Part shown: positions 793 to 11,923 of the stretch, piece after piece
Numbering within the stretch: position 1 is the first letter of the stretch
Layout: every line of letters begins with the position of its first letter
Assembly (NCBI GenBank): GCA_046758705.1
Contig: JBHIAT010000115.1
Span: forward strand, 1-11,923
Source: Candidatus Bipolaricaulia bacterium
GTDB lineage: Bacteria > Bipolaricaulota > Bipolaricaulia > JBHIAT01
DNA: 11,923 nt
Direction of reading: 5' to 3'
Made by a program: the position numbers and the translations under genes
The notes under the pieces: model-generated
Databases searched by the model: none
The model's input: only the letters and a program-made list of their open reading frames with translations
Told to the model about the DNA's origin: nothing

Positions 793-945
793 CCTCCTAC
801 ACTTGGTCAAATATGACCACGTTCGGTCCGCTGCCTTATCGCGGCCAGCGGAGTTTCGCTCTCGGATTGACCCGCCGGATCCCTGCCCTTGTCCACCAAA
901 GGCGCAGTCGGTCGGGTGTCTCGAGTCCTGCCCGGAACAGTCGAT
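793..945 (-). ncRNA. Putative omegaRNA (reRNA) scaffold overlapping the tnpB 3' end; the guide would read into the flank from 792 downward
   Basis: Stacked hairpins: TGGTCA-aata-TGACCA (804-819), TCCGCTGCC..GGCCAGCGGA (827-852) and an imperfect long stem at 870-917. They lie under a Pro/Arg-rich, apparently unstructured TnpB tail and end at the right end of the element. TnpB omegaRNAs are known to occupy this position. The 5' boundary is approximate. Confidence 0.65.
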
Positions 946-2441
946 GGACCCTCGATCCCCACCTCAGCCAGAACGGCCAGATTCACCTGCTGTGGCGGGA
1001 AGTCGAATGCCCACCGTTCCAATCGGCGACGAAACCTGCTTTCTAGGACCGCCCGAACCCGCTCCTTCGGCGTCCAAAGGAGGATCTCGGAATCATGCCA
1101 GCGGTCCAGCAGGTTCAAGGCGGCCACCGCGTCACTATCTCCACCGTGTCCGCAAAACAGACACTGAAACCTGTTCCCACGGCGGTTCTGGCGGTGGACG
1201 AACCCACAGTGAGGACACGTTTGGCTGGAGTAGCTCGCGTTAACCTGCTCATGGTGGGAACCTCCCGCCGACGCCTTGAAGGCGACACGGTCCTTGATCA
1301 AACCGCGAACCCACAAGCTGACAATACGGCTCAGCCGCCTGGATTTCCATTTACCGTTTAAGTAACGAAGATTCTCATGCACCACCACGGCTGGTCCTTT
1401 AGCCTTCCAAAAAGCATTCAGGGCGCGATTGATCTCGTTGGCCAACGTCTGGCGCATCTTGCGGCGCTGCTTGCGCTGCTTCTCCCTACCCAGATTGTAC
1501 TTGCGGATGCGTCGTGCCTTGGCTTTATCACCTTTTTCTTCGGCCCGGCGGGCTAACGCGCCCAGCTTATTGCGCTTGCGGCCTTTGTCGCATATCTGGT
1601 CCGAGTAGTTCGCGAGTCGCTGGCCCAGACCCTCACCCCAACGGTCGCCATCAGAGTCGGTCATGACTTCAGTTACGCCCAAGTCGACCGCCTTCACCTT
1701 CGACCCGTCGGTGACTGGCTCAGGCTTCACCTCGATAGCCCGATGTACTTCGATGCGTCGCTTTTCCTCATCCCGAACGATGCGCAGGTTGCCTTGGATG
1801 GTTCCCCACCCGGTGAGGGGCAGGATCAGGCGCCGGCCAGGCGTGAGGGTCATGATCGAGATATACTGGCGACCGTTCTGCTCAAAGACTCGATACATCT
1901 CAGCATCCAAAGCAAAGCTGCGCACCTGCCCGACCCGGGGATCTTTCCCGCGCTTGCGCCTGATGACCCGGCGCAGATAGGCAACTACTTGGCGCTGCTC
2001 CCTGCGGCTGATGGAGAAGTGCAGCGGAGACGGTGCCCTGCCACTCACCAGTTGAGCCATGTGCCGGGACGACTTCAGCACCCAGAACGCATAGCGGGCT
2101 TGCTCGTCGGTGAAGTGGTCCCGGTTTTTCTGAGCCATCACCAACGGGCGCAGGGCTTCGGCCAGGGCTAGCCACTGCCGATCTATCGTCTCGATCGCAT
2201 CCTGGAGCGCCAGCTTCCACATGCGAGCTTGCAGGCCGAAAGGACTCTGGTAGCCAGTTGCCAGCAGTTCGTCCCGCACCTGGTGGTGGTTCTGGTAACG
2301 GGCGAAGATGGACGGGCGGCCGTATTCTACCAGGAAGCGGTCCTTCTGAGCCACATAAGCGGCGGCGATCTGGTGCACGGTCTGCCACTTGCCCTGGTTC
2401 AGGGAGCGGCTGTAACGCTTGATGGTTCGTCTCAAACTCAC
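807..2441 (-). CDS. tnpB: RNA-guided endonuclease TnpB (IS607-associated), ~544 aa
   Basis: RuvC-I AVDLG, RuvC-II VVHENL, zinc finger CPHC..CLFC after YSSQT, RuvC-III DSDAVAALN. Start moved from the ORF-track 2498 to GTG at 2441, which overlaps the tnpA stop (GTGA) and follows GGAGGGAG. Confidence 0.93.
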   Translation of the reverse strand: MSLRRTIKRYSRSLNQGKWQTVHQIAAAYVAQKDRFLVEYGRPSIFARYQNHHQVRDELLATGYQSPFGLQARMWKLALQDAIETIDRQWLALAEALRPLVMAQKNRDHFTDEQARYAFWVLKSSRHMAQLVSGRAPSPLHFSISRREQRQVVAYLRRVIRRKRGKDPRVGQVRSFALDAEMYRVFEQNGRQYISIMTLTPGRRLILPLTGWGTIQGNLRIVRDEEKRRIEVHRAIEVKPEPVTDGSKVKAVDLGVTEVMTDSDGDRWGEGLGQRLANYSDQICDKGRKRNKLGALARRAEEKGDKAKARRIRKYNLGREKQRKQRRKMRQTLANEINRALNAFWKAKGPAVVVHENLRYLNGKWKSRRLSRIVSLWVRGLIKDRVAFKASAGGSHHEQVNASYSSQTCPHCGFVHRQNRRGNRFQCLFCGHGGDSDAVAALNLLDRWHDSEILLWTPKERVRAVLESRFRRRLERWAFDFPPQQVNLAVLAEVGIEGPSTVPGRTRDTRPTAPLVDKGRDPAGQSESETPLAAIRQRTERGHI

Positions 2442-3094
2442 TGCTCTCCCTCCAGGATGCATACCATCTGTCGAGCCAACTCTGTGACCTGTCTGCATTT
2501 GTAGGAACGCCGGCCGTAGAACTTCGCGCAGAAGTGTTGCACGATGGCGATGAGGTCTTCGGTCAACTCGTGCATGAACTCTGGATCTGGCTTCTCAGAG
2601 CGATTGATGACCACCAGTTTGGTGCCGTACTGAGCGAAGATGGCTTCGATGAGATCGTAGCCGAAGCGGGCCAGTCGGTCTTTGTGAGCCACAATGACCT
2701 TCTCCAGGCGTCCGTTCAGCGCCTTGGTGATGAGCTGGCGGAACTTCGAGCGGCGATAGTTCAAGCCGGATCCGATGTCCGTCCAGACGTCGTCATAGGA
2801 TTGCCCGGCCCCGATGCAGAATTGCTTCAACGTCTGCACTTGGTTCTCCAGGTCATCCTTGTGGGCACGGCTGGAGACGCGGGCATAGAGGATGACCTTT
2901 TTGTTTTTGTCACCAGGGGAGGAAGGCAACGGTTGACCCAGGAACTTACGCAGGGTGGTCTCACTGTAGCGACGATGGCCTCCCTGGGTGCGGATGTCTG
3001 GGACGAGCTTGCCTGACTTATCCCAGCGACGGAGGGTGATGATAGAAACCCCGAGCATCTCGCTGACTTGGCCGATGGAATAGTAGCGATCCAT
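2438..3094 (-). CDS. tnpA: IS607-family transposase TnpA (MerR-type HTH + serine recombinase), ~218 aa
   Basis: N-terminal YSIGQVSEMLGVSIITLRRWDKSGKL..RTQGGHRRY helix-turn-helix; catalytic YARVSS; DIGSGLNY, HKDRLARFG and ELTEDLIAIVQHFCAKFYGRRS motifs. Start moved to ATG 3094 because the ORF-track TTG start (3157) is the -35 box of its promoter. Confidence 0.95.
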   Translation of the reverse strand: MDRYYSIGQVSEMLGVSIITLRRWDKSGKLVPDIRTQGGHRRYSETTLRKFLGQPLPSSPGDKNKKVILYARVSSRAHKDDLENQVQTLKQFCIGAGQSYDDVWTDIGSGLNYRRSKFRQLITKALNGRLEKVIVAHKDRLARFGYDLIEAIFAQYGTKLVVINRSEKPDPEFMHELTEDLIAIVQHFCAKFYGRRSYKCRQVTELARQMVCILEGEQ

Positions 3095-3128
3095 TATATG
3101 AATATCTTTTCCGTATAGATATGTACAT

Positions 3129-3157
3129 ATTATATCACATTTTAGCTTGACTGTCAA
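3129..3157 (-). promoter_or_regulatory. Consensus sigma70 promoter at the IS left end driving tnpA-tnpB
   Basis: Minus strand TTGACA (3157-3152), 17-bp spacer ending in TGA (extended -10 TGn), then TATAAT (3134-3129). Confidence 0.85.
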
Positions 3158-5310: not shown

Positions 5311-5406
5311 CTTGGAAAACGCTTCCGAATCGATGTCACATCCTGATTTCGGCTTCTCCAACTTTGGATTGTAAGCAATTGACCCGGCATGTCGCAAGGG
5401 GGGACC

Positions 5407-5435
5407 TTTACCGGCGATGGGGTATGTGATACACT
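5407..5435 (+). promoter_or_regulatory. Candidate sigma70 promoter for the glycosyltransferase
   Basis: TTTACC (5407-5412), 17-bp spacer containing an extended -10 TG (5427-5428), then TACACT (5430-5435). Confidence 0.45.
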
Positions 5436-5452
5436 GGACAGTGGTTCAAGGA

Positions 5453-6466
5453 ATGCGAATCTGTCTCTATCTGGAAGCGGAGAACATCTCTGTATCAGGC
5501 ATCTTGACTGCCTTCAGACAGCAGGTCAAGGCGTTGAAACAGGTCGGGGTGGAACTCACCACCGACTTTAAGGACGATCACGACCTGCTACACCTCCATC
5601 GCTACGGCCCGAAATCCCTCTATTACCTGAAGCGAGCGAGGACCCGGGGGAGGCCGGTGGTGATCACCGCTCACAGCACCGCCGAGGATTTTCAAAACAG
5701 CTTCACACTCTCGAACACATTCGCCCCGTTCATCGGCTGGTATCTGCGATTCTTCTACGAACAGTGCGATCATATCATCACCCCCTCGGAGTACACCAGA
5801 GATCTGTTGAGACGTCATGGCACACGGGGCGAGTTCTCGGTGGTCAGCAACGGTGTTGACCTGGAGTGCAATCGATTCTCCGCGGAGAAGCGTCGTCGGT
5901 TTCGGGAGACGTGGGGTTTGGAAGGGCCAGTTGCCCTCTCCGTCGGCCGGGTCTTTCCCAGGAAGGGGGTGATCGACTTCATTAAGGTTGCGGCCCAGCT
6001 TCCGGAGGTCACGTTCGTCTGGTGTGGGCCGCGGCTCAACCGACTGATCTCCTTCTATCCGGAGATGGAACGCCGGATCCGCGAGCGATCGCCCAATGTG
6101 CGGTTTTTGGGGTTCGTTCCCGACATCCAGGCGGCCTATGCCGCCGCAGATGTCTTCTTCTTCCCGTCCCACGAGGAGAATCAGGGGATCGTGCTGTTAG
6201 AGAGCGCCGCCATCGGGGTTCCGATCGTGACCCGGGATCTCCCCGTCTACCAGGGATGGCTGGTCCATGGGGAGAACTGTTTCAAGGGAAAGACGGTCGA
6301 GGAGTTTCGAGATCACATCCAGAAGTTGCTCGATGACGAGGAACGGCGCACCGCCTTGGTCGCCGAGGGGAAACAACTCGCTGAAACGCACCGTCTGGAG
6401 CGAATCGGAGGGCAGCTGGTGGCGGTTTACCGGTCGCTGTTGGACGGTTCGGCCGAGTCTGGCTGA
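5453..6466 (+). CDS. GT4 (GT-B fold) glycosyltransferase, similar to diglycosyl-diacylglycerol synthases
   Basis: MRICLYLE..SGILTAFRQQVKAL, HSTAEDFQNSF, ITPSEYT, SNGVD, PRKGV and the E-x7-E motif (EENQGIVLLE). Start at ATG 5453 is preferred over 5417 because the candidate promoter overlaps 5417. Confidence 0.88.
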   Translation: MRICLYLEAENISVSGILTAFRQQVKALKQVGVELTTDFKDDHDLLHLHRYGPKSLYYLKRARTRGRPVVITAHSTAEDFQNSFTLSNTFAPFIGWYLRFFYEQCDHIITPSEYTRDLLRRHGTRGEFSVVSNGVDLECNRFSAEKRRRFRETWGLEGPVALSVGRVFPRKGVIDFIKVAAQLPEVTFVWCGPRLNRLISFYPEMERRIRERSPNVRFLGFVPDIQAAYAAADVFFFPSHEENQGIVLLESAAIGVPIVTRDLPVYQGWLVHGENCFKGKTVEEFRDHIQKLLDDEERRTALVAEGKQLAETHRLERIGGQLVAVYRSLLDGSAESG

Positions 6467-6982
6467 TCAGCGGGGACCGTTCCCCAGCTGCCTTGCATCT
6501 TGGATAAACTCGCTGACCACCCCTCTGAACCTTCGCCAGTCGAGGATCAACGCCAGGACGATCCAGGCGATGAAGATATAGGCCGCCTCCGGAGCTTCCA
6601 GATAGGCGATCACCAACGGAAGCACCACGAGCGGCAGAGCGAACAGCTCTGTGATCGCTTTGGATCGCGACTTGATCATGAAGATCCCGGCGATCACGGT
6701 GTAGATGAGAGCGGGCAGCGCGGGAACGAATCCGGCGAGCACCATGTAGACGAGGCCGGCGAGGACCATCACCATGTCGAATGGAAAGTCCTTGTCACTG
6801 ATCCAGGTGGGCTCTTCTGAGCTCCGTTTGGCCAGCCGGCCATCCAGGATGTCCGTCGTCCAACCGAAGATCGTCAGAAAGACGACCGCTTCCAAAGCGC
6901 GCTTTCCGGCGAACCCCAACAACAGAATGATGAGAGCGATACCCCCTCGAGAAAGCGTCAATGTATCCGCGAGACGCCTCAT
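6467..6982 (-). CDS. CDP-alcohol phosphatidyltransferase family membrane protein
   Basis: ADTLTLSR, then TDILDGRLAKR...DFPFD (DxxDGxxAR..DxxxD signature) and about five hydrophobic segments. Likely start is ATG 6982; the ORF track extends to 7051. Confidence 0.82.
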   Translation of the reverse strand: MRRLADTLTLSRGGIALIILLLGFAGKRALEAVVFLTIFGWTTDILDGRLAKRSSEEPTWISDKDFPFDMVMVLAGLVYMVLAGFVPALPALIYTVIAGIFMIKSRSKAITELFALPLVVLPLVIAYLEAPEAAYIFIAWIVLALILDWRRFRGVVSEFIQDARQLGNGPR

Positions 6983-7053
6983 GACATTTTGCCCCTTGAC
7001 TCTCATTTTTGTTATTATACCGTACTCCGACCTCGAATGCCACCCCGTCATCC

Positions 7054-7083
7054 TTGATCTTCTCTATCTCCCTCCCGTAGAAT
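7054..7083 (+). promoter_or_regulatory. Candidate sigma70 promoter for the trpBA-aro operon
   Basis: TTGATC (7054-7059), 18-bp spacer, TAGAAT (7078-7083), 33 bp upstream of the trpB ATG. Confidence 0.45.
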
Positions 7084-7116
7084 ATTTCCATAGTAGACGT
7101 TAGGATGTGCTGACCT

Positions 7117-8361
7117 ATGAAAAGTGGAACCAAGGTGGAGAATCATCGGGGGAGATCTCCGGAAAAACTCTCGACCCTGCCGGAGACCGGATGGTTCGGA
7201 GAGTACGGGGGCCGATTCTATCCGGAGGCGTTGATGCCGGCCCTGGAGGGGCTTGAGGAGGCGTATACGGCCCTCCAGGACGACGACGCGTTCCGGCTCG
7301 AGCTGCGCCGCTACTGGGAGGAGTATGAAGGACGTCCCTCCCCACTATATAAAGCGAGCAACCTGAGTGAATATGCCGGCGGGGCGAAGATCTATCTCAA
7401 GCGGGAGGACCTGATCCACGGCGGTGGCCACAGCCTCAACAACGCGCTGGGCCAGATCCTGCTCGCCAAACGGATGGGCAAAAGACGGGTGATCGCCGAG
7501 ACCGGATCGGGTCGACACGGGATCGCGGTGGCGATGGCTGGGGCTCTGCTTGAGGTCGAGGTCGAGATCTTTATGGGGGCCATGGATTTCGACGCGCGTC
7601 GCGCGGAGATCGATGAGATGGAGATGATTGGAGTCCGGGTGCACCGGGTTTCGGACGGTAGAGGAGGGTTGACAGGGGCGATCAACACGACGTTGCGTGT
7701 CTGGATGCAGGACCTGGAAACGACCTATTATCTGCCGAGCACCGCTGTCGGGCCGCATCCCTATCCGATGATCGTCCGGAACTTCCAGAGCGTTATCGGA
7801 GATGAGATCAAAGGTCAGATACTGAGAAAGGAGGGCCGGCTTCCGGACCTGTTGGTCGTCTGCGTCGGCGGCGGAGGCAGCGCCATCGGGACCTTCTATC
7901 CGTTTGTCGACGATGAAGCGGTGAGGTTTCTGGGAGTGGAGGGCGGAGGGCAGGGTCTGGAAAGCGGCCGTCATGCGTCCAAACTGGTTGCCGGGAGTGT
8001 CGGGGTTCTCTACGGGGTGAAGACCTACCTGCTCCAGGACGACAGCGGACGGGTCGTTCCCCCCCGCAGCCTTGCGGCCGACCTCACCTATCCAACGGTC
8101 TCCCCGGAGCTCTCGTTCTACAAAGAGATAGGACGGGCGGAGTATATCTCCGTGACCGATGAGCAAGCGATGGAGGGTTTTCGATCTCTGGCACAGCTGG
8201 AAGGCATCCTGCCTGCCCTGGAGTCTGCCCATGCGATCTATGCCGGCCTGGAGCGGGCAAGGCAGATGGAGCGCGATCAGGTGGTGGTGCTCACCGTGTC
8301 GGGCCGGGGGGAGCGGGATATCGGATTGCTGAAGATGAAGACCGCAGGGTTGGGACCATGA
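7117..8361 (+). CDS. trpB: Tryptophan synthase beta-subunit homologue lacking the PLP-binding lysine (probably not a canonical TrpB enzyme)
   Basis: Full-length TrpB1 motifs: FGEYGGRF, GRPSPLY, IYLKREDL, IAETG, GPHPYPMIVRNFQSVIG, EGILPALESAHA, SGRG. The canonical HTGAHKINN reads HGGGHSLNN here. Confidence 0.9.
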   Translation: MKSGTKVENHRGRSPEKLSTLPETGWFGEYGGRFYPEALMPALEGLEEAYTALQDDDAFRLELRRYWEEYEGRPSPLYKASNLSEYAGGAKIYLKREDLIHGGGHSLNNALGQILLAKRMGKRRVIAETGSGRHGIAVAMAGALLEVEVEIFMGAMDFDARRAEIDEMEMIGVRVHRVSDGRGGLTGAINTTLRVWMQDLETTYYLPSTAVGPHPYPMIVRNFQSVIGDEIKGQILRKEGRLPDLLVVCVGGGGSAIGTFYPFVDDEAVRFLGVEGGGQGLESGRHASKLVAGSVGVLYGVKTYLLQDDSGRVVPPRSLAADLTYPTVSPELSFYKEIGRAEYISVTDEQAMEGFRSLAQLEGILPALESAHAIYAGLERARQMERDQVVVLTVSGRGERDIGLLKMKTAGLGP

Positions 8362-9146
8362 GCGACATCGGGCTCAAGTTTCGAGAGCTGAAGGAGCGGG
8401 GGGAACGGGCACTGATCGTGTATCTGGTCGCCGGAGATCCTTATATCGAATACAGTCGCGAGTTTATCCGAGCACTTGAGGCAGGGGGTGCCGATATGAT
8501 CGGAATCGGGGTTCCTTCCTCCCAATTGATCGTCGAGAGCCCGGTGGTCTGGGATGCACACCTCAGGGCGCTCAACGCCGACATCACCCTCCAGGATGTG
8601 TTAAACCTGATCGAGGAGGTGCGAAGGACGTCGGAGATCCCCATCATCCTGATCAGTTACTATAACCCAATCCTGAAAATGGGCGAGTGGATGTTCATGG
8701 AGCGTTGTGGGGAGCTGAAGGTGGACGGGGTGATGGTCGTGGATCTCCCCCTGGAAGAGGGCGAGGACTACAGTGAACGGGCACGGCGCAACGGGATCGC
8801 CCCGATCTTCTCACTGTCACCGCGATCCGGGTCGAACCGTATTATGGCGATCGGGGCGCGGAGGAACGGGTTTTTACACCTCATCGGCGTGGAGATGGAT
8901 GAACAGGGGGCAGCTCAAACTTGGATCGGAGAGCTGCGTCCCCAGCTTCCTGAGCGGCTGCCTCTGGTGATCGAATGTCGAGGCACGAGCATCGACCAGG
9001 CCGGAATCGCGGCACTACTCCGTTTGGGTGTCGACGGGGTGATCATCTGGGATGCTCTCGTTGAGCGGATCGGCCGGGGAGAGAACCTGGAGCAGATCCA
9101 GTGGTACATCGGTGAACTGAAGGGTGGAACGACGATCGGCGGATAA
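8358..9146 (+). CDS. trpA: Tryptophan synthase alpha-subunit homologue with a degenerate active site
   Basis: 262 aa, ATGA overlap with trpB; RALIVYLVAGDP, GGADMI, RAL, PIILISYYNPI and VDGVMVVDLPLEE motifs. The catalytic segment ELGxPFSDPxADGP reads GIGVPSSQLIVESP. Confidence 0.88.
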   Translation: MSDIGLKFRELKERGERALIVYLVAGDPYIEYSREFIRALEAGGADMIGIGVPSSQLIVESPVVWDAHLRALNADITLQDVLNLIEEVRRTSEIPIILISYYNPILKMGEWMFMERCGELKVDGVMVVDLPLEEGEDYSERARRNGIAPIFSLSPRSGSNRIMAIGARRNGFLHLIGVEMDEQGAAQTWIGELRPQLPERLPLVIECRGTSIDQAGIAALLRLGVDGVIIWDALVERIGRGENLEQIQWYIGELKGGTTIGG

Positions 9147-9209
9147 CAGGGGACAGGTGCCCGCCATCGTACTCCGTGGCTGCGGACGAGGCTGGAGTGG
9201 AGTTGGAGT

Positions 9210-9770
9210 ATGGCCCCAATCATGAACGTGAACGAGAACATCTATCTGATCGGTTTCATGGGTGCAGGAAAGAGCACTGTGGGATTGTTGTTGGCCGAGC
9301 GCACCGATCGAATATATGTCGATACCGATCAGTTGATCGTGGAACAGGTTGAGAGATCGATCGCCGCGATCTTTGCCGATAACGGTGAGAAATACTTCCG
9401 GGATTTGGAATCTGAGATCATTAAAGAGATCTCACGCCAGGAAGGGCTGGTGGTGGCCCTCGGCGGGGGAGCCCCGATCCGCCGCAGGAACTGGGGACGG
9501 ATCGAGCGAACCGGGGTCAGTGTCTATCTCATGGCGAAGCCGAGGACGCTCCTCGAGCGAATCGAGACTGAGGGTGAGGGACGGGAAGAACGGCCGTTGC
9601 TCGCTGGGTTGAGCCGCCAGGAGAAGTTGGCAAGGATCGAGGAGATGCTCTATCAGCGCGCTCCCTATTATATGCAGGCGACGCTCATTGTCCCCAACGA
9701 GCACCGTGCCCCGGAGATGGTCGTCGACGAGATCTTGAGTGGGTTGGCCGAGCTGTATGGCGAGGATTGA
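9210..9770 (+). CDS. aroK: Shikimate kinase
   Basis: NIYLIGFMGAGKSTVG (Walker A), DTD, GEKYFRDLE, LGGG, RPLL and RAPYY. The start could alternatively be ATG 9222. Confidence 0.96.
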   Translation: MAPIMNVNENIYLIGFMGAGKSTVGLLLAERTDRIYVDTDQLIVEQVERSIAAIFADNGEKYFRDLESEIIKEISRQEGLVVALGGGAPIRRRNWGRIERTGVSVYLMAKPRTLLERIETEGEGREERPLLAGLSRQEKLARIEEMLYQRAPYYMQATLIVPNEHRAPEMVVDEILSGLAELYGED

Positions 9771-10882
9771 CCGACACCGACATGGGACGAATCGATGTCG
9801 TGCTCAGCGAACCGGACGAGCGAAGCTATCCGATCTACATCGGGAACGGCCTGTTAGGTGCGGTGGGGTCCCACTATCGTGATCACGGCCTCGGGCCTCG
9901 GACGGCGATCATCACCGACGTGACCGTTGAGCGGCTCTATGGCACCGGGATCGCGGGTTACCTGGCGGATGCGGGCGTCCAGGTCGATACGATCGCGGTT
10001 TCGACCGGAGAGACGGCCAAGACGTTGGCCACGGCTGATACCGTCTATGACGCTCTGATCACCGGAAGGCATGAGCGAAGCTCAACGATCATCGCGCTCG
10101 GGGGCGGGGTGATCGGTGATCTGGCCGGGTTCGTCGCCGCCACCTTCCTACGCGGTCTCCCACTGGTTCAGATTCCCACCACATTGCTGGCTCAGGTGGA
10201 CAGCAGCGTCGGTGGGAAGACGGGGGTCAACCACCGCCTGGGGAAGAACCTGATCGGCACTTTCTACCATCCTCGGTTTGTGCTTATCGATCCCCAGGTG
10301 TTAAGCACGCTGCCCGAGCGGGAGCGCTGGGCAGGGCTGGTTGAGGTGATCAAGTACGGCCTGATCCGGGATGAGCAGCTGTTTCGGCTGCTGGAGTCGC
10401 AGTTGGAAGGGCTGGCTGGCCTCCAGGACGGTCGAACGCTGAACCAGGTGATCGAGACCTGCTGCCGGATCAAGGCGGAGGTGGTCGGTCGGGACGAACG
10501 GGAGCACGGGCTGCGCCGCATCCTGAACTTCGGCCACACCATCGGACACGCTCTTGAGGTGGCCACCGGATACGAGCGGCTGAGGCACGGGGAGGCGGTT
10601 GCCCTGGGGATGTGGGCCGAGGCGTGGTTGTCCCATCGGGAAGGCCTGTTGAGCCAAGCAGAGTTGGCTCGGATCGAGGATCTTTTGGATCGGGTGCCGG
10701 TTCCTGACCTCGCTGAGATCGATGCAGGGCAGTTAATGGATCGGATGCGTTCGGATAAGAAGGTCGAGGCGGGAAGGATCCGGTTCGTGCTGCTTGAACG
10801 AATCGGAGAGGCGATTGTCCGAGAGGTGAACGACGCCCGCATCCTGGAAGCGATCGAACGCCTCCAGCAAAAGGCAAAATGA
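9767..10882 (+). CDS. aroB: 3-dehydroquinate synthase
   Basis: [65 protein letters not shown] and HGEAV. The TTG start overlaps the aroK stop; ATG 9782 is an alternative. Confidence 0.97.
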
Positions 10883-11325
10883 AGCGAATTTTGGTCGTTC
10901 ATGGACCGAACCTGAACCTGCTCGGCGAGCGGGAACCCGGGGTTTACGGAGACCGGGGCCTGAGGGAGTTGAACGCGATGATTGAGCGGTTCGCCGAGGT
11001 GCAGGGGCTGCAGGTTCGCATCTATCAATCGAATCACGAAGGCCGGATTATCGACCGCATCCACGCGAATCGACGCTGGGCCGACGGGATCGTCATCAAC
11101 CCGGGCGCGTTCACCCACTACAGCTACGCGATCCGTGATGCAATCGCCGCCGTCGGGCTGCCGACGGTCGAAGTCCACCTCTCCGATATCGACCGCCGGG
11201 AACCGTTTCGCCGCATCTCGGTGATCGCCCCGGTCTGCATCGAGCAGATCTCGGGGAAGGGCTTCGACAGTTACATCGAAGGGATTCGAACCCTGCTTGA
11301 CCAGGACAAGGGTCTGCTCGTTTGA
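10879..11325 (+). CDS. aroQ: Type II 3-dehydroquinate dehydratase
   Basis: [39 protein letters not shown] and EVHLS..REPFR; ATGA overlap with aroB. Confidence 0.97.
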
Positions 11326-11346
11326 GGTTTGAGATTCAACCGTACA

Positions 11347-11856
11347 TCATGGCTGCGAGGCATCGTCGGAGGTGAACGGCAGGGATGAGACCACCAGGGA
11401 CGAGCCCTCTTCAGAGATTCCCTGAAGGGTGAAGAAGCCAAGCCGCGCCTCGATCGCATACTTGAAGTTGCCGCGATCGGTCCCGTACAGCTCCCCGGAG
11501 TTTGGATACATCCCTTTGATATCGAGGATCCGGCCGTCCGCGGCGATGAACGCGATCTCCAGGGGAGCGAGCACATTGTTCATGTGAACTTGAGCATCGA
11601 TCTCCACTTCGAAGACGAACAAGATGATCGTCTCCTCGATCACCGTCTTGGGGATGTACTGGAATCCAGCGTACCATTCGTGGGGCTCATCGGCGACTCG
11701 GACGGTCATCCGGATCACTTCGCCCGCGTCGTTGATCATCTCGATCTCGGCCGGTTCCATCGCCTCCAGGATGCCGAGTCCGGCCGGTTGGGCCGTTGTC
11801 ACACCCGAAAATGCAACCCCAATTCCGAACAGAATCAGCAGGACATTGTTCGTCAT
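11347..11856 (-). CDS. DUF192-family exported protein
   Basis: Signal-peptide-like N-terminus; VRVADEP..WYAGFQ, ILFVF, HMNNVLAPLEIAFIAADGRILDI and YAIEARLGFF match the DUF192 pattern. ATG 11856 follows AGGAGGAG. Confidence 0.8.
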   Translation of the reverse strand: MTNNVLLILFGIGVAFSGVTTAQPAGLGILEAMEPAEIEMINDAGEVIRMTVRVADEPHEWYAGFQYIPKTVIEETIILFVFEVEIDAQVHMNNVLAPLEIAFIAADGRILDIKGMYPNSGELYGTDRGNFKYAIEARLGFFTLQGISEEGSSLVVSSLPFTSDDASQP

Positions 11857-11923
11857 CTCTTTCTCCTCCTTATTGCCGGTCAATACACCGGACTTCAGTC
11901 CGCGTGATCCGGTATGCTACGAT

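Follow-up and report, generated by a model that had tools for sequence, protein, structure and literature searches.

The stretch of DNA considered here (hereafter the window; 11,923 nucleotides, contig JBHIAT010000115.1 of assembly GCA_046758705.1, from a Candidatus Bipolaricaulia bacterium) carries two overlapping genes, trpB′ and trpA′, that encode homologs of the β and α subunits of tryptophan synthase, the textbook case of substrate channeling and allostery between two enzymes, and that are followed on the same strand by aroK, aroB and aroQ (Table 1). Catalytic residues have been lost from both products, termed β′ and α′ below. It is probable that α′ is a non-catalytic TrpA-like subunit and that, together with β′, it forms a complex kept for a non-enzymatic role. 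A sequence-only reading of the window had proposed that trpA′ encodes an inactive or repurposed TIM barrel, and this proposal is supported by the loss of the acids and phosphate loops from a scaffold that has otherwise been kept and by a predicted barrel; the same reading overlooked the dead partner TrpB, the canonical trp operon elsewhere in the genome and the conserved lineage of orphan trpBA loci to which the pair belongs.

Table 1. Features of the trpB′-trpA′ locus, in window positions
Feature	Position	Strand	Description
trpA′	8358..9146	+	262 aa, stop-free open reading frame (ORF); full-length TrpA fold without catalytic and phosphate-binding residues
trpA′ codon 49	8502..8504	+	GGA = Gly where catalytic Glu49 is expected
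trpA′ loop 2, residues 53-62	8514..8543	+	PSSQLIVESP; consensus PFSDPxADGP
trpA′ loop 6 region, residues 174-184	8877..8909	+	HLIGVEMDEQG; Y175H, 3 residues shorter, non-Thr at the Thr183 position
trpA′ first phosphate loop place, residues 205-212	8970..8993	+	IECRGTSI; consensus xxVGFGIS (G211, F212, G213)
trpA′ second phosphate loop place, residues 231-233	9048..9056	+	WDA for G234-S235-A236; from alignments
trpB′	7117..8361	+	414 aa, TrpB1-type; without the Schiff-base lysine for pyridoxal phosphate (PLP) and other catalytic and allosteric residues
trpB′ codon 106	7432..7434	+	AGC = Ser; aligned with catalytic Lys87 of E. coli TrpB
trpB′/trpA′ overlap	8358..8361	+	ATGA; trpA′ start overlaps trpB′ stop
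promoter-like site	7054..7083	+	TTGATC, 18 nt, TAGAAT; consensus scan, 9 of 12 matches, pattern only; upstream of trpB′
aroK (shikimate kinase)	9210..9770	+	63 nt 3′ of trpA′; sole copy found in the genome
aroB (3-dehydroquinate synthase)	9767..10882	+	overlaps aroK; sole copy found in the genome
aroQ (type II 3-dehydroquinate dehydratase)	10879..11325	+	overlaps aroB; sole copy found in the genome

Residue losses in the two subunits

The alignment of α′ to PF00290 (Trp_syntA), one of the checks that the sequence-only reading had suggested, gives 153 bits against a curated cut-off of 27, and TIGR00262 gives 161 bits against 102, in agreement with the claim that a TrpA homolog is present at its full length. 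When α′ is aligned to 5ey5_A and E. coli TrpA (substitutions are numbered here after E. coli TrpA and E. coli TrpB), the changes in loop 2 and at the catalytic positions are E49G, F54S, D56Q, P57L, A59V, D60E and G61S, and they are accompanied by Y175H, G234W and S235D and by loss of the GFG motif. Catalytic roles are ascribed to αGlu49, αAsp60 and αThr183 in PMC9512447. The glycine read at position 49 (GGA at 8502-8504), the stretch PSSQLIVESP with its changes of Asp60 to Glu and Gly61 to Ser, and the reading IWDA in place of VGSA, all of which had been called from the letters, reappear in the translation and the alignments. Loop 6 had been described as replaced, shortened and devoid of Thr183; the alignment confirms a shortening by three residues, and the residue standing at the Thr183 position is Glu, Gln or Ile depending on the aligner. 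The reading of GFGI as ECRGT was correct as to the loss of the motif and ambiguous as to register, the stretch aligning either as ECRG (MAFFT) or as GTSI with a one-residue insert (HMMER), with the motif gone in both cases. The D60E change retains an acid but shifts its position, and Glu60 is found in 15 others of 230 aligned database TrpAs.

The losses in α′ are targeted at the active site beyond chance, and the scaffold has been spared. From 230 examined rows, 196 canonical TrpAs served to define the test columns, namely the 47 with conservation of 85% or more, and the list of 20 site columns among them (active site, loops 2 and 6 in their entirety, phosphate loops), drawn from background on the enzyme and from PMC9512447, was fixed before counting. 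Only 5 of these 20 columns are retained in α′, compared with 25 of the 27 elsewhere (Fisher p = 2e-6); in the canonical rows, the number of columns lost has a median of 0 and a maximum of 4 at the site and a median of 1 and a maximum of 8 elsewhere. This distribution bears on an alternative that we regard as unlikely, namely that the pair is a decaying duplicate that became useless once catalysis was lost or a foreign canonical operon arrived and that is drifting to a pseudogene, its frames still being open either for want of time or because a premature stop would have polar effects on the essential aro genes that follow. Random loss of this kind should strike the scaffold as often as the site, but 15 of 20 site columns and 2 of 27 scaffold columns have been lost.

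A structure prediction, also suggested by the sequence-only reading, is confident. The AlphaFold2 model of α′ (100-row alignment) is a complete (βα)8 barrel with a predicted local distance difference test score (pLDDT) of 94.3 and a predicted template modeling score (pTM) of 0.92, and the top Foldseek matches of the model are all TrpA chains (TM 0.84-0.90), although a canonical alignment would draw the prediction to the TrpA fold anyway. In such a barrel the substrate pocket would be dismantled and probably filled by the new side chains of Trp231, Asp232, and Glu206 or Arg208.

Judged from its residues, the product of trpB′ is dead as well. It scores 497 bits on TIGR00263 (cut-off 392), reads HGGGH-S-LNN where TrpB reads HxGAHK, and differs from 5ey5_B, 1v8z_A and E. 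coli TrpB by K87S, Q114R, R141A, K167T, D168G, S235G, N236S, G303D and D305T; the changes in helix 6 are T165G, K167T, D168G, E172T, A173T and D176V. A set of 100 Lys-bearing TrpBs yields 170 columns with conservation of 95% or more; β′ retains 135 of these, and the 35 lost columns group at 85-87, 112-114, in the COMM domain (127-190), and at 235-236, 297-313 and 381-382, clusters that take in the lysine and, besides the mobile COMM domain, the carboxylate and PLP-phosphate loops. In the known enzyme, αAsp56 and βLys167 couple the two subunits. According to PMC9512447, βLys87 is responsible for aldimine chemistry and proton transfers, and a salt bridge between βArg141 and βAsp305 latches the closed state. 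αAsp56, βLys167, βArg141 and βAsp305 have all been lost here, and the αAsp56-βLys167 and βArg141-βAsp305 couples are thus gone on both sides.

By alignment, β′ still has His86, Glu109, Thr110, Gly111, Gly113, His115, Glu350 and Ser377. Retention of these residues would suit a new enzyme, in which either the remodeled α′ pocket (Glu60, Ser61, His174, Glu206/Arg208, Trp231, Asp232) converts a different, non-phosphorylated substrate or, alternatively, β′ utilizes non-covalently bound PLP in chemistry that can proceed without a Schiff-base lysine. The two versions taken together are considered improbable; the proton transfers of the known chemistry need βLys87, as far as the excerpts of PMC9512447 describe them, and further evidence on both sides comes from the relatives of the pair (see below).

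The canonical trp operon and the orphan trpB-trpA loci of the class

The genome, assembled into 319 contigs that total 3.70 Mb (completeness 93.9%, contamination 4.7%), also encodes a canonical trp operon, located on contig C19 (L010, G000:C19, 4351-12130), which opens with a TrpB2-like gene (738 bits on PRK12391) and continues with trpE, G, D, C, F, B and A. Its TrpB (602 bits) and TrpA (223-236 bits) have the full set of catalytic residues, and from this gene content it appears that the genome needs no trpB′-trpA′ for tryptophan, which the C19 operon would supply. A gene for a HetI-type phosphopantetheinyl transferase lies just upstream of the operon. In both trees (quick trees with long branches) the C19 TrpB and TrpA fall outside the class clade, suggesting that the operon may have been acquired and may be of foreign origin; such an acquisition, like the presence of the operon itself, favors the view of the window pair as a decaying duplicate. 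Contamination of the assembly was considered as a source of the operon and rejected, since C19 and C115, the window contig, lie within the bulk of the tetranucleotide distribution of the genome (ranks 94 and 28 among the 160 contigs that reach 8 kb), which is a weak test.

Relatives of the pair were sought in a set of 41 genomes comprising the window genome and the 40 nearest available, which are related to it at class level only; similar database proteins carry the source name Candidatus Bipolaricaulota. TrpA relatives occur in 18 of the 41 genomes, TrpB (E <= 1e-60) in 19, and indole-3-glycerol phosphate (IGP) synthase and TrpD in 12 each. Orphan trpB loci, that is, loci outside an operon, were detected in ten genomes (the window genome, all seven members of family f4, G011 and G023), in nine of them with trpA′ and in G023 without it. 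The f4 genomes (90-96% complete) have exactly one TrpB and one TrpA match each, and IGP synthase and TrpD matches were found in 0/7 of them. The operon and an orphan locus occur together in the window genome and in G011 and G023, the latter two being of family f7. The window proteins are nearer to the orphan copies than to those of C19: α′ is 37-43% identical to the orphan TrpAs and 26% identical to the C19 TrpA, and β′ is 53-59% identical to the orphan TrpBs. The gene order trpB′-trpA′-aroK-aroB-aroQ is found again in G011, G003 and G007, and a further five genomes have the pair by itself, surrounded by differing neighbors and with no aro genes 3′ of it. In G007 and G003 a single ORF matching both AroK and AroB directly follows trpA′ (L025 5579-7234 and L028 5787-7379), which suggests a fusion.

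Lys87 has been replaced at nine of the ten orphan loci, by Ser in the window, G015 and G027, by Thr in G011, G039 and G003, by Ala in G035 and G031, and by Leu in G023, G007 alone having kept Lys; it is present in all four operon-type TrpBs examined (three from family f6 and that of C19). The replacement codons vary synonymously (ACG/ACT, GCC/GCG, TCC/TCG), indicating that the Lys-less state is old, and the state at this position changes at least eight times on a 64-row tree (a quick tree, with 24 of its 58 inner forks unresolved). Among the 120 best database hits to β′, the query counted, 26 are Lys-less (Thr 19, Ser 3, Ala 2, Pro 1, Asn 1). The predominance of Thr points to a constrained rather than a free state, which a new enzyme would account for; however, no relocated lysine or other clade-specific residue was found in the Lys-less TrpBs, the only columns to emerge being a variable one at the N-terminal end and two that discriminate weakly.

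Ten database TrpBs related to β′ (P0291, P0279, P0285, P0302, P0288, P0278, P0286, P0297, P0273 and P0275) have few differences among them, grouped at residues 87, 88, 91, 92 and 99, yet read HKF, HTF or HTL at 86-88. The occurrence of near-identical TrpBs with and without the lysine could reflect allele exchange, or repeated recent loss of the lysine, in natural populations. Recurrent loss, mostly from Lys to Thr and sometimes between near-identical proteins, constitutes a natural experiment on how and why pseudoenzymes arise.

Loss at the α site is graded across the lineage, with 2-9 site columns (of 20) missing from the relatives and 15 from the window protein, compared with 1-3 of the 27 columns elsewhere. 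The changes E49G, D60E and G61S are all present in the trpA′ of G015 (L023) as well, whereas its sister G027 keeps Glu, Asp and Gly. A transferred segment was rejected as the origin of the shared changes, for the flanking codons differ widely between the window and G015, and the likeness therefore looks like convergence. Independent origin of the same three residues is a point in favor of a new enzyme in α′; it is opposed by the pocket residues, which are not conserved among the orphan copies, each orphan TrpA lineage having lost a different set of site columns. A metagenome protein, P0107 (41% identical to α′), has E49A and D60N and lacks both loop 6 and GFG, and its gene sits between a TrpB fragment in which Asp305 has been replaced and aroB.

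Five TrpA-like proteins outside the orphan clade (P0144, P0147, P0169, P0182 and P0214) have Glu60, with loop 6 short or missing in all five, and most of them also lack one or both phosphate loops; from such sequences it appears that degenerate TrpAs may be more widespread than annotation implies. P0106 (630 aa), the best non-self match of α′ among database representatives, contains two TrpA-like stretches and is possibly a tandem or fused protein. All of the source names displayed for the database relatives of the pair are plain 'tryptophan synthase subunit alpha' or 'beta', and metabolic reconstructions built on annotation as tryptophan synthase would wrongly credit tryptophan synthesis or indole salvage to their hosts, including the f4 genomes.

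Decay does occur within the orphan lineage, as the state of G023 indicates. Its lone trpB (L031, G023:C5, 7972-9264) encodes Leu87 and has lost 44 of the 170 conserved columns, more than the window copy, and no convincing remnant of trpA was found in the gap that follows it (best tblastn E 0.028 on the 17-kb locus). As in family f4, the gene adjoins a Sir2 gene, and three tRNA genes and EF-Tu follow. This Lys-less gene without a trpA′ partner, together with the position of the window copy, which has the most losses and, with the exception of the lone TrpB of G023, the longest branches in the lineage, argues for the view that the window pair is decaying too.

The co-occurrence of orphan and canonical genes raises the further possibility that a dead subunit modulates the canonical synthase by binding a live C19 partner and altering its output, with β′, for example, activating the canonical TrpA to give off free indole, or α′ binding the canonical TrpB. 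Such modulation has precedents in a plant TSB paralogue that activates TSA with release of indole (PMC12727527) and in Chlamydia, where an impaired TrpA regulates TrpB (PMC8376405), and the three genomes that have both loci (window, G011 and G023) account for three of the five most degenerate orphan TrpBs (35, 16 and 44 of 170 columns lost, respectively), although G015 (28 of 170) and G027 (25 of 170), which have no operon, also rank high. Such modulation is nonetheless considered very improbable for the window pair: no canonical subunits were found in family f4, which has the pair all the same, the canonical TrpA is just 26% identical to α′, and the contacts have changed on both sides together (loops 2 and 6 in α′, helix 6 in β′), which would suit the two products to each other rather than to a canonical partner.

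Selection on the pair and its possible role

The reading favored here, that of a non-catalytic complex that has been kept, draws on the constraint observed in the lineage. Ratios of nonsynonymous to synonymous substitution (dN/dS) were obtained by the Nei-Gojobori method for pairs of genomes whose TrpB′ is Lys-less. Between G035 and G031 (both Ala87), dN/dS is 0.096 for TrpB′ (dS 0.47) and 0.084-0.087 for TrpA′ (dS 0.83), compared with 0.076-0.117 (dS 0.43-0.71) for the neighboring GuaA, Sir2, two GT4 and ABC-F genes; between G015 and G027 (both Ser87), it is 0.10 for TrpB′ (dS 0.88) and 0.079 for TrpA′ (dS 1.17). Such low values mark the pair in these four genomes as conserved proteins and not junk. 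Lys-less orphan pairs are constrained like neighboring housekeeping genes, and this holds also for the five genomes in which no aro genes follow, a point against the view of the pair as a decaying duplicate.

The window copy has codon-position GC contents (0.64/0.40/0.72 for the pair) similar to those of the neighboring genes, and this intact composition is likewise not what decay would leave. The window stretch is present in four hydrothermal-vent DNA runs of one study, one of them perhaps its source; no RNA run is listed with it, which says nothing about expression. A 6.5-kb sister contig from another sample (run X3) spans positions 5400-11898 with five differences, all of them within the pair (8007, 8016, 8419, 8828 and 8857), of which the two in trpB′ are synonymous and those in trpA′ comprise one synonymous change, V21A and A167E. 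With another synonymous site from a further sample, the pair has six variable sites, four synonymous and two nonsynonymous, a split that would lean against free drift, although such small numbers are not decisive. Parts of the pair are also covered by short contigs of one run that are ~10-12% divergent. By length alone, the chance that all five X3 differences should fall within the pair is ~0.003, and the clustering could reflect a recombined tract or locally relaxed constraint, the latter being what decay would predict.

Immediately upstream and downstream, the arrangement of the genes may have consequences for how the frames are kept. The promoter-like site precedes trpB′ and no terminator-like site was seen on the plus strand ahead of aroK, so that trpB′-trpA′ are very probably transcribed together with the genome's only, and essential, aroK-aroB-aroQ. 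No Rfam family reached threshold in the window that would represent a leader or attenuator RNA upstream of trpB′ (the gap there is 65 nt), and a tRNA search of the window found none. Elsewhere in the window, a gene for an IS607-type serine recombinase (2438-3157, minus strand) overlaps a TnpB-like gene (807-2498, minus strand, 563 aa) that scores 92 bits, under the 100-bit cut-off of the guided_TnpB model, the two adjoining mutY. A short dispersed repeat at 11863-11906 (37-44 nt with a small hairpin) has at least nine more copies at 93-95% identity on other contigs; identification as a CRISPR repeat was ruled out, for the copies are not arranged in arrays. In the metagenome runs, contig depth rises about eight-fold at 11722-11923.

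A model of the α′/β′ complex scores 0.86, and the best of three controls 0.00. Of 157 solved complexes, 116 attain this mark, as do 2 of 215 mismatched pairs, counts that are approximate here because own alignments were used. Agreement of contacts between runs is at least 100%, the partner pLDDT is at least 87, and the lowest-error contacts involve residues 101-107 and 128-131 of α′, including the retained Tyr101, Asn103, Pro104, Asp129 and Leu130 (own numbering). Since the tryptophan synthase complex has already been solved, the result may reflect likeness or memory; the model would indicate likeness to tryptophan synthase rather than binding of the window copy.

It is proposed that α′ survives as a structural partner of the β′ encoded by the overlapping upstream gene, and that the two would form a tryptophan-synthase-shaped complex that makes no tryptophan, synthesis being left to the canonical operon, in an orphan lineage that has repeatedly shed catalytic residues under purifying selection. 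Because the Lys-less lineage is under such selection, we infer that the complex is kept, probably for a non-enzymatic role. The preferred candidate, for which gene context is the only guide and which we hold to be rather doubtful, is that the complex binds a ligand (PLP together with an amino acid or indole, in the remaining β′ pocket with its eight retained residues listed above) and so senses or buffers aromatic amino-acid metabolism.

Several considerations weigh against this proposal. The non-enzymatic role is supported by no result, and ligand sensing is a guess. With the coupling residues gone from both subunits, a surviving complex could not act like the known allosteric one. There is no close relative of α′: a search of 5.8 billion proteins gave a best non-self hit with 43% identity, and one of 1.84 billion representatives gave 42%; its 90% cluster has one more member, a two-residue variant that is also in the sister contig, and none of 54 candidates at E <= 1e-10 was a shorter fragment of a relative. 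The dN/dS of the window pair against its class relatives (0.14-0.40) is unreliable, dS being saturated (at least 1.5 or not computable). The branches of the window copy are long (1.5 changes per site for TrpA′ and 0.96 for TrpB′), by summed branch lengths ~2-3 times (TrpA′) and ~1.5-2 times (TrpB′) the root-to-tip paths of the orthologues, which fits relaxed constraint as well as repurposing. The open frames are weak evidence, because 28% of frames were still open after 10% extra neutral divergence in a substitution-only simulation, a result that does not discriminate between readings; identity between TrpAs of different families is already 43-48%. Moreover, selection against polar stops upstream of the sole aroK-aroB-aroQ could hold the frames open without any function of the proteins. 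What is shown are the residue losses and their concentration at the active sites, the second, canonical operon, the orthologous lineage and the selection acting on that lineage; that the window copy is still under selection, that α′ binds β′, and that the pair has such a role are matters that we infer.

A broader version of the same reading, which we entertain as plausible though somewhat short of likely, is that the class maintains the complex under housekeeping-level selection, that the β lysine has been lost or exchanged at least eight times with the α site eroding afterwards, and that the window pair, with both of its sites dismantled, represents an end state. If such step-by-step erosion has taken place, the pair would be a double pseudoenzyme with a non-catalytic job, for example to sense or buffer, in a PLP-dependent manner, indole or an amino acid on behalf of the aromatic pathway. 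Loss of the lysine may itself have been adaptive where indole is not supplied, because, it is proposed, wasteful serine deamination would have been stopped.

Comparison with known synthases and pseudoenzymes

Single dead subunits that regulate a live partner are already known. The TrpA of Chlamydia trachomatis, as described in the excerpts of PMC8376405 (structure 6v82), is a catalytically impaired α subunit that acts as an allosteric regulator of TrpB, and it resembles α′ in its full-length TrpA fold, in its occurrence in an organism or lineage without the upstream pathway and in being kept beside trpB. The positions at which the phosphate and indole pocket of the Chlamydia protein is blocked, by G211R, F212R, G213D, G234K and a phosphate-mimicking Asp, are by alignment replaced in α′ as well (G211, F212 and G213, together with G234W and S235D), where the new side chains may fill the pocket. 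In contrast, Chlamydia TrpA keeps both acids (the equivalents of Glu49 and Asp60), whereas α′ has both changed and loop 6 shortened, and Chlamydia TrpB is active, with PLP on βLys84 (PMC8376405), whereas the window partner has Ser at 87. Without the lysine in its partner, activation of partner catalysis cannot be the role of α′.

The plant TSB-like pseudoenzyme is, in the excerpts of PMC12727527, similarly a non-catalytic paralogue of a synthase subunit that is found beside the canonical enzyme and acts via the subunit interface, as is proposed for the window pair. It has lost two residues, one beside the equivalent of bacterial Glu105 and the other by change of Asp to Glu. In the plant, the β paralogue alone is dead and switches on a live TSA, whereas in the window both subunits appear dead and the lysine itself is lost; the co-encoded α′, having neither Glu49 nor Asp60, would not provide the competent α partner of the plant type.

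A laboratory counterpart of the commonest natural orphan replacement is the Salmonella βK87T mutant (PDB 2TYS), which, according to its record title, assembles and has been crystallized with active-site ligands. This is a man-made single change, whereas β′ combines Ser87 with ~34 further losses at conserved positions. A figure legend in a paper on a Bipolaricaulota isolate lists, in a single cluster and without comment there, tryptophan synthase alpha chain, shikimate kinase and, further on, type II 3-dehydroquinate dehydratase. Searches of openly licensed PubMed Central papers and bioRxiv turned up no account of a TrpB without the lysine in bacteria, nor of a pair with both subunits dead.

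With the canonical α2β2 synthase, the window pair shares family scores, fold, the trpB-trpA order with overlapping stop and start, and a predicted interface, and it differs from it in that all tested residues defining both catalytic sites and their coupling are missing or changed. The loss of catalytic residues from both subunits, in a lineage conserved like housekeeping genes, points to an undescribed function of the synthase scaffold, distinct from the single-subunit regulation of Chlamydia TrpA and plant TSB-like proteins.

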